This document shows, piece by piece, positions 4,951 through 5,175 of a DNA stretch of 7,388 bases (within the stretch, counting starts at the first letter, position 1; every line of letters starts with the position of its first letter). The stretch lies in the IMG/VR virus record IMGVR_UViG_2663762839_000012; one strand, given 5' to 3'. The notes beneath the pieces were generated by a model that was not told the origin of the DNA, searched no databases, and saw only the letters and a program-made list of their open reading frames with translations. Source of the stretch: a virus (Duplodnaviria; Heunggongvirae; Uroviricota; Caudoviricetes). A program made the position numbers and the translations under genes.

Positions 4951-5175
4951 ATGAAGAAATTACTGGTAACCGTAAAGCCTTTTCAGGGAACAATTCCGTT
5001 CCGTATTTTGCAGCGTGGTCGTGTTCTTGTTGAAGGTTCGTTCAGTGGTAAATGTACGCAATTACACTCCCGGACCTTTCAGGTGAATGCCACGAATGAA
5101 GAGCTAACCGTTGAGTGTACGATGAATGCCGCTAAATGCCGCATGGTATCCGCTGCATTACAGCCAGTGTGTTGA
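4951..5175 (+). CDS. Hypothetical small protein (74 aa, 4 Cys), unknown function; prophage cargo gene downstream of the spanins
   Basis: GGAG (4942-4945) 5 nt upstream of ATG 4951; stop TGA at 5173-5175. The gene begins 24 nt after the Rz stop in the same orientation. Translation MKKLLVTVKPFQGTIPFRILQRGRVLVEGSFSGKCTQLHSRTF... is not recognised by me. Confidence 0.45.
   Translation: MKKLLVTVKPFQGTIPFRILQRGRVLVEGSFSGKCTQLHSRTFQVNATNEELTVECTMNAAKCRMVSAALQPVC

Follow-up and report, generated by a model that had tools for sequence, protein, structure and literature searches.

A common 74-residue gene behind the spanin genes of lambdoid prophages: its accessory slot, the pairing of its family with PHROG 4280, and a neighbouring TonB_C lipoprotein gene

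The bor gene, which phage lambda carries between the spanin gene Rz and cos, is expressed from the repressed prophage. RIII of T4 and LydB of P1 are small cytoplasmic lysis modulators that modulate holins. In the present study, we analyzed a small open reading frame (ORF) located directly behind Rz in a stretch of Caudoviricetes DNA of 7,388 nucleotides (nt) (IMG/VR record IMGVR_UViG_2663762839_000012), the whole of which is hereafter called the window. The ORF encodes 74 residues, and its coordinates and those of its neighbours are given in Table 1. It is a genuine gene under purifying selection and one of several alternative occupants of a variable slot behind the spanin genes. Its family forms a conserved pair with genes of PHROG 4280, and not with the lipoprotein gene encoded downstream of it in the window. 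We tentatively propose that the ORF encodes a late-operon accessory binding protein of lambdoid prophages, an explanation that we prefer while regarding it as falling short of probable.

The ORF starts 24 nt past the last base of Rz (a spacer of 23 nt) on the same strand and behind a good ribosome-binding site (RBS; GGAG, 5 nt before the ATG). The predicted product has a mass of 8.2 kDa, an isoelectric point of 9.7, and cysteines at residues 35 (GKC), 56 (VEC), 63 (AKC), and 74 (the terminal PVC). No lipobox or signal peptide was seen in the ORF, and no transmembrane segment was found, the highest Kyte-Doolittle mean over 19 residues being 0.76 versus 2.4 for the membrane anchor of Rz. Features of spanins or of other membrane components of lysis (Rz, Rz1, u-spanin, and holin) were also absent, as the ORF carries no transmembrane or lipoprotein signal and matched no lysis family in Pfam. 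These results agreed with an earlier interpretation that had been made from the nucleotide sequence without database searches (the sequence-only reading), which had reported the position, RBS, four cysteines, and lack of export signals. It had also described the ORF as uncharacterized, and we found no match in the profile libraries beyond PHROG 2571, the function of which is unknown.

We concluded that the ORF is a genuine gene because it is an annotated coding sequence (CDS), has homologues of conserved length, shows ratios of non-synonymous to synonymous substitution rates (dN/dS) below 1, retains its Shine-Dalgarno sequence, and yields a confident fold prediction. RefSeq lists the product as the hypothetical protein WP_000735655.1, and GenBank records of Shiga toxin (Stx) phages also annotate a CDS for a hypothetical protein. 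A search of 5.8 billion proteins returned 66 homologues with identities of 56-100%, all of which were from Escherichia or Salmonella and nearly all of which were 68-74 residues long. Codon-level conservation, whose absence had been named in the sequence-only reading as a reason to doubt the ORF, was evident among eight divergent alleles. Pairwise dN/dS was 0.27-0.58 in 27 of 28 comparisons, and substitutions were concentrated at third codon positions, as in a coding frame. In the group of window-type alleles (22 DNA alleles from 83 copies), 11 synonymous and 12 non-synonymous changes segregated, and the corresponding ratio for polymorphisms (pN/pS) was 0.33. The exact protein of the window was encoded by at least nine different DNA alleles. 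The position of the RBS was constant, every divergent allele having GGAG, GGAGG, or GGGGG at an identical distance from the ORF. Rz is extended by eight codons in some alleles (Stx2_EH2201 and O55:H7 CB9615) and ends there in an ATGA that overlaps the start of the ORF.

The presence or absence of the ORF between syntenic genes is that of a moron. Rz is the immediate upstream neighbour of the ORF in each of the 67 IMG/VR loci whose sequence extends far enough in that direction. Across these loci, identity to the window was 71-100% for Rz and 96-100% for the ORF, a mosaic pattern. In two lineages, a remnant of the 3′ end of Rz (~55 nt) precedes the ORF, and the true Rz is located ~450 nt further upstream; because of this remnant, the left edge of the ORF cassette is placed within the end of Rz. 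On the right, the cassette is bounded by a conserved non-coding element of ~180 nt. The slot between Rz and this element alternatively holds the ORF, bor on the opposite strand (lambda-like and 933W-like phages), Rha (Lys8385Vzw), or nothing. A second variable slot is located downstream of the element; it holds the TonB_C lipoprotein gene and YnfO in the window, while YnfO alone is found in other phages, or cos/terminase follows directly. Since the downstream terminases are of at least four kinds (Nu1/gpA, Terminase_2, Terminase_4, and DUF1441), the ORF is tied to no particular packaging system. Many converting phages of the Stx1, Stx2a, and Stx2c types carry it. A 586-nt stretch comprising the ORF and the downstream spacer matched 1,914 of 5,426 complete Escherichia coli genomes, with many of these matches covering the adjacent conserved element only. 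A consensus scan detected no promoter-like site before the ORF, no terminator between Rz and the ORF, and no canonical terminator for the ORF, which is followed by the conserved hairpin element.

The match of the ORF to PHROG 2571 (E=2.8e-28, 99.9 bits) aligned residues 1-73 with profile positions 100-172 of 291. Neither the ORF nor its distant relatives had a match in Pfam, NCBIfam, or PADLOC. At E <= 1, the defence models of PADLOC-DB matched neither these proteins nor the PHROG 4280 partner described below, and searches of PDB sequences with the ORF-family profile and with the partner returned nothing. A profile search of 1.8 billion representative proteins identified 48 relatives, including proteins of 72-82 residues from Klebsiella, Salmonella diarizonae, Scandinavium, and Enterobacterales. 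Matches to a cystatin-repeat protein (P0073) and to a protein of 2,764 residues (P0083) in the representative search were judged to be spurious. A scan of genome contigs with the family alignment gave pattern matches, none of which was confirmed. The reading frame and length of the family are preserved down to ~25-30% identity, and the wider set of relatives shares the pattern MK.L.VT...F.V.Q.G..L.ED..SGK....Y.V.A.D..L.VEH. PHROG 2571 also contains proteins of 280-286 residues that carry an ORF-like domain in the middle and whose genes are located between Rz and Nu1 (phages PhiR46_1 and YDC107_1 of E. coli). A full-length member of 286 residues matched the family profile at E=7e-164, and the structure prediction for a relative of 280 residues (P0075) was too poor for use, with a predicted local distance difference test (pLDDT) score of 57.

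The AlphaFold2 model of the ORF product, which was based on 23 aligned sequences, contains six beta strands and one short helix (pLDDT 90.2; predicted template modelling score, pTM, 0.76). The fold is confidently predicted to be an all-beta sandwich. Its best fold matches included CBM35, CBM6, and CBM36 modules and LecB/RS-IIL lectins, with identities of 6-16% and scores in the range of generic folds, and the model may at most be described as a small binding-type sandwich. The label "Cys-containing", which the sequence-only reading had given the ORF, does not apply to the family as a whole. Within the close E. coli/Salmonella subfamily, only C35 and C56 are invariant; C63 and C74 occur in only 9 of 23 close relatives, and the wider family has no conserved cysteine column. 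Many close relatives carry GKCTEC (CxxC) together with VEC, and the window allele has a leucine (L38) in place of the second cysteine of the CxxC. Because of these three features, namely, the missing column, the restriction to C35 and C56, and L38, the cysteines are not what defines this protein.

The conserved partner of the ORF family is a gene of PHROG 4280. In a Salmonella locus (L088), a PHROG 4280 gene of 68 residues (4265-4471 of that locus) comes 39 nt behind the ORF homologue, and the E. coli loci L090-L092 carry an N-terminally truncated copy of the same gene. In an accessory island among tail genes (L102), a family member with ~30% identity is followed by a PHROG 4280 gene (6294-6515) that is 66% identical to the Salmonella gene. 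In phage mEp237, gene 060 is a member of the ORF family (hhalign probability 99.6%, E=3e-24), gene 061 belongs to PHROG 4280 (L110, 2501-2722), and both are located behind the lysis genes. We scanned IMG/VR with the PHROG 4280 partner and then searched the loci with a hidden Markov model of the ORF family. A family ORF ended 40-70 nt before the partner in 51 of the 55 partner loci with room upstream, and the four exceptions were the most divergent partners. Three distinct ORF subfamilies participate in the pairing, and most pairs are flanked by lysozyme and an Rz-like gene on the upstream side and by the small terminase gene on the downstream side. Between distant pairs, the partner shows 66% identity, whereas the ORF shows about 30%.

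The PHROG 4280 proteins have 68-73 residues and very conserved motifs (GWV.GW.VVR..PWHLVGVYAT ... YGSHR.GSDDF). Distant homologues (~40-50% identity) are present in Pseudomonas phages without an ORF-family neighbour. No Pfam match above the threshold was obtained for PHROG 4280 (DUF7457 was below it, E=0.0017), and none was found in NCBIfam, PDB, or PADLOC. In the window, tblastn with three partner sequences found no PHROG 4280 gene.

Our preferred explanation, an accessory binding protein made from the late operon, would work as follows. The ORF sits in the variable slot between Rz/Rz1 and cos/terminase. Because there is no promoter or terminator between Rz and the ORF, we infer that an intact phage would transcribe it solely upon induction, within the Q-antiterminated late transcript. 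Translation would start from its own conserved RBS behind Rz, and in some alleles at the ATGA shared with the Rz stop. The product is predicted to be a soluble, cytoplasmic beta-sandwich of 8 kDa. Its small size, its fold, and the lack of a catalytic signature suggest that it acts stoichiometrically by binding another molecule rather than by catalysis, and the polar residues conserved across the family (Q21, E28, S32-G33-K34, and R41) are the likely binding face. In sister lineages, the PHROG 4280 protein, whose gene lies 40-70 nt downstream, would be the likeliest ligand or co-worker. The lineage of the window appears to have lost the PHROG 4280 gene and kept the ORF, the product of which would act alone on a host or phage target. 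This target may belong to an end-of-infection or lysis-stage function, or to conflict with the host or a rival phage.

Several observations weigh against this proposal. The description as a binder derives from the absence of catalytic features, and the fold matches are weak; Foldseek returned no significant match for the model, with E >= 0.07 in BFVD (predicted viral structures) and E >= 0.3 in PDB. In window-type alleles, the partner is missing and the ~180-nt element is found instead; therefore, any mechanism requiring both proteins is ruled out for these alleles. Some distant relatives are located after Q and in the tail-gene island, which weakens a lysis-specific interpretation. Purifying selection on the ORF is only moderate. 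Moreover, the comparison between the window and the CB9615 allele (L085, 4001-4225) gave a dN/dS of 2.6, with 16 non-synonymous and 2 synonymous changes. Both of these alleles lack the partner, and only 2 of the 18 nucleotide differences between them are at third codon positions. By our own binomial estimate, this pair is not significantly different from neutral, although it hints at change of a relaxed or diversifying kind along this branch. We also found no literature on this gene.

An alternative is that the ORF encodes a lysis-stage accessory factor, a small cytoplasmic protein produced along with the spanins, that tunes the timing of lysis or the last step of envelope disruption, by analogy with T4 RIII and P1 LydB. 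Its position is suggestive in this respect. The ORF is located directly behind spanin genes of two unrelated families, a DUF2514 spanin in Klebsiella relatives and Rz (PF03245) in E. coli and Salmonella, and overlaps the Rz stop in some alleles; furthermore, the preference of the ORF/PHROG 4280 pairs for the place after lysozyme and an Rz-like gene fits this idea. However, the interval from Rz to cos attracts accessory genes in general (bor, Rha, and TonB_C), and the ORF is missing from many phages that share this Rz. Relatives are also found upstream of the holin, in addition to the positions after Q and in the tail-gene island, and the protein has no transmembrane segment with which to meet a holin or spanin in the membrane. 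We consider a lysis factor to be unlikely.

The pairing itself allows two further interpretations. The ORF family may function only in complex with the PHROG 4280 protein, in which case the window copy would be the orphan half of a two-protein system, either a decaying relic or a stand-alone "immunity" remnant. The recurrence of the pair in 51 of 55 loci and across three ORF subfamilies is consistent with this, as are the better conservation of the partner than of the ORF between distant pairs and the dN/dS near or above 1 between the two partner-less alleles. However, the partner-less window-type alleles are the commonest, and their pN/pS of 0.33 and many synonymous variants with an identical protein are difficult to reconcile with decay. 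We doubt this interpretation. Alternatively, the ORF family and PHROG 4280 may constitute a previously unrecognized two-component late function of lambdoid phages at the end of the lysis operon, namely, a new modulator of lysis or release or a counter-defence pair, with the partner-less form of Stx-type phages being derived, stand-alone, and rapidly changing. We regard this as similarly doubtful. A toxin-antitoxin interpretation of the pair was considered and is unlikely; there is no evident promoter, the positions are exclusively late, and neither protein has a known toxin or antitoxin domain.

The fold matches to CBM35/CBM6/CBM36 and LecB/RS-IIL raise another alternative, a lectin- or CBM-like factor that is freed at lysis and binds sugar on debris, the host surface, or mucus. 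The cargo positions of the family in late operons, including an stx-like slot after Q, are compatible with such a factor, and there is a parallel in other late-region cargo of Stx phages, the action of which begins only once the cell has lysed. We consider it to be improbable.

The sequence-only reading had noted that a lipoprotein gene in the same orientation begins ~340 bp downstream of the ORF, and this was borne out (338 nt past the ORF stop). It had also suggested that the two genes form a two-gene cargo module and had proposed co-occurrence as a check, which the module fails. Of the 68 IMG/VR loci that carry a near-identical ORF and extend far enough downstream, 19 have the lipoprotein gene next to the ORF and 49 lack this gene. 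It also occurs without the ORF, beside Rha in phage Lys8385Vzw and beside bor in phage Perceval, while Stx2_EH2201 and PPyecE_EH1910 carry the ORF without the lipoprotein gene. The conserved element between the two genes is also found in phages from which one or the other gene is missing. In a consensus scan, a promoter-like site with an extended -10 immediately preceded the lipoprotein gene, and no comparable site preceded the ORF. For these reasons, the lipoprotein gene is an independent neighbour and not part of a module with the ORF. The two genes are on the same strand and stand together with identical spacing in the 19 IMG/VR loci and in O55:H7 CB9615; however, given the evidence above, we consider a co-inherited and co-expressed module to be very improbable. 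In an intact phage, the long late transcript would cover the ORF and the lipoprotein gene, as it would every gene from Q to the tail genes, and this is no sign of a module. YnfO follows the lipoprotein gene at a fixed spacing in all 19 loci with the latter, and the lipoprotein gene and the minus-strand YnfO/DUF3950 gene travel as a unit. The lipoprotein is filed in PHROG 1267, which is labelled "Rz-like spanin"; this label looks wrong for a protein with a TonB C-terminal domain.

The possibility that the ORF is not a functional gene, but a frame that stays open within a conserved block of DNA, could appeal to its short length, its lack of a known domain, the moderate constraint, and the strongly conserved non-coding element beside it. 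It is highly improbable in view of the codon-position bias, dN/dS below 1, the retained Shine-Dalgarno sequence, the frame and length kept down to ~25-30% identity, and the confident fold. A cysteine-based metal or redox protein, such as one of the zinc-ribbon type, is hardly credible: four cysteines are present in the window allele and GKCTEC plus VEC in many close relatives, but L38 replaces the second cysteine of the CxxC, C63 and C74 are found in 9 of 23 relatives, the wider family offers no cysteine column and hence not four conserved Cys/His ligands, and the model shows a beta-sandwich in place of a knuckle or ribbon.

The non-coding element beside the ORF is 77-98% identical across ~400 phage records, including lambda-like, 434, mEp460, 933W-type, and Stx phages. 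It contains long invariant blocks and is often better conserved than the flanking genes. The element was present in 87 of 94 close ORF loci, and was absent within the fetched flanks of all 56 PHROG 4280 partner loci. It separates the two accessory-gene slots. A coding region or partner gene within the element (for example, an ORF at 5136-5411) was considered and rejected, because no frame stays open across the element homologues. The element has a long imperfect hairpin (5198-5288) and a second hairpin (5343-5371). Its consensus structure comprises 42 pairs, 4 of which show compensatory changes, and the folding z-scores (-2.2 to -2.5) indicate modest stability. No Rfam family matched the element, and an Rfam scan of 3100-7388 at E <= 1 gave three chance-level matches, none of which was near the ORF.

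The features of the window are summarized in Table 1.

Table 1. Positions of genes and other features along the window
Feature	Coordinates	Strand	Remarks
aceA	185-1504	minus	left part of the window
aceB	1519-3138	minus	left part of the window
DUF826 gene	3235-3504	plus	
Lysozyme gene	3610-3972	plus	N-terminally truncated
Small membrane-peptide ORFs (two)	4096-4311, 4326-4457	plus	
Rz (i-spanin)	4454-4927	plus	stop TAG 4925-4927; Pfam Phage_lysis, E=7e-50
Rz1 (o-spanin)	4680-4865	plus	embedded within Rz
Shine-Dalgarno sequence GGAG	4942-4945	plus	5 nt ahead of the ATG of the ORF; read from the sequence
ORF, 74 residues (PHROG 2571 member)	4951-5175	plus	stop TGA 5173-5175; annotated as WP_000735655.1
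Conserved non-coding element, ~180 nt	5190-5372		right edge of the ORF cassette
Promoter-like site (ATGACC, 16-nt spacer, TG-TAGAAT)	5460-5487	plus	consensus scan, pattern match only
TonB_C-domain lipoprotein gene	5514-5846	plus	Pfam TonB_C, E=1e-14; lipobox VMGC at residues 17-20
DUF3950/YnfO gene	5978-6178	minus	
Lambda-type cos site GGGCGGCGACCT	about 6385-6396		
Nu1	6574-7119	plus	followed by the start of gpA

Late-region DNA of a lambdoid prophage occupies the plus strand of the window from ~3230 onward. This prophage is degraded and its lysis cassette is defective. The lysozyme ORF has 120 residues versus 177 in relatives; the first ~57 residues are gone, and the Pfam Phage_lysozyme match begins at profile position 27. 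Neither a holin nor a DUF1327 gene was recognizable at 3505-3972, between the DUF826 gene and lysozyme, where syntenic phages carry them, and no Q or pR′ late promoter region was found in the window. The upstream region of aceB abuts phage late DNA (the DUF826 gene) at ~3228-3239. None of the 5,426 complete E. coli genomes had this junction, which either reflects a rare rearrangement or deletion or is an artefact of chimeric assembly. Because the prophage is degraded in these respects (no Q or pR′, no holin, a truncated endolysin, and DNA abutting aceB), the copy of the ORF in the window may be a silent relic. A strong terminator-like hairpin with a 13-bp stem (AAAACCCCGTTTG...CAAGCGGGGTTTT) was noted at 4063-4095, between the truncated lysozyme and the next small ORF, and appears to be bidirectional. 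The cos region (6352-6430) is of the lambda type (...GGGTCCTTTCCGGCGATCCGACCGGTTACG / GGGCGGCGACCTCGCGGGTTTTCGCTATTTATGAAAATTTTCCGG), with a 12-nt cohesive-end sequence at 6385-6396, ~180 nt upstream of Nu1.

The ORF is very common and has no name, domain, or published study. If it does modulate lysis, release, or the conflict between phage and host, it would affect how Stx phages complete their cycle, with a bearing on toxin release. The practical gains of the present study are modest: an incorrect link to the lipoprotein gene has been removed, PHROG 4280 has been named as the likely functional partner, and a strongly conserved non-coding element has been recorded beside the ORF. Tractable phages are available in mEp237 for the pair, and in Stx2c phages and PPyecE_EH1910 for the ORF alone.

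Compared with known systems, the ORF is an ordinary late-region accessory gene of lambdoid prophages, with an existing annotation as hypothetical and a place in a PHROG, and not a new kind of system. T4 RIII and P1 LydB resemble it, as a general-knowledge analogy, in being small, soluble, and encoded with lysis genes; however, no kinship in sequence or fold with the ORF was found, and members of the ORF family are also located away from lysis genes. CBM35/CBM36, LecB/RS-IIL, and the C-terminal domain of hemocyanin/polyphenol oxidase, at 6-16% identity and Foldseek E >= 0.3, show resemblance to the predicted fold, not membership. The long PHROG 2571 proteins share the ORF-like beta domain and the place between Rz and Nu1, but are extended by a helical region at the N-terminus and an alpha/beta region at the C-terminus, whereas the window protein is the bare domain of 74 residues. 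Lambda bor and DLP12 borD occupy the same slot between Rz and cos, with the same ~180-nt element on the right. However, bor is on the opposite strand and encodes an outer-membrane lipoprotein, while the ORF runs in the direction of the late genes, lacks an export signal, and has no promoter that we could find for it alone; its sequence shows no similarity to that of bor. A further counterpart is mEp237_060/mEp237_061, in which 060 is a member of the ORF family at the same position after the lysis genes; pairs of this type carry the PHROG 4280 gene of 68-73 residues 40-70 nt downstream, and the window has the ~180-nt element in its place.
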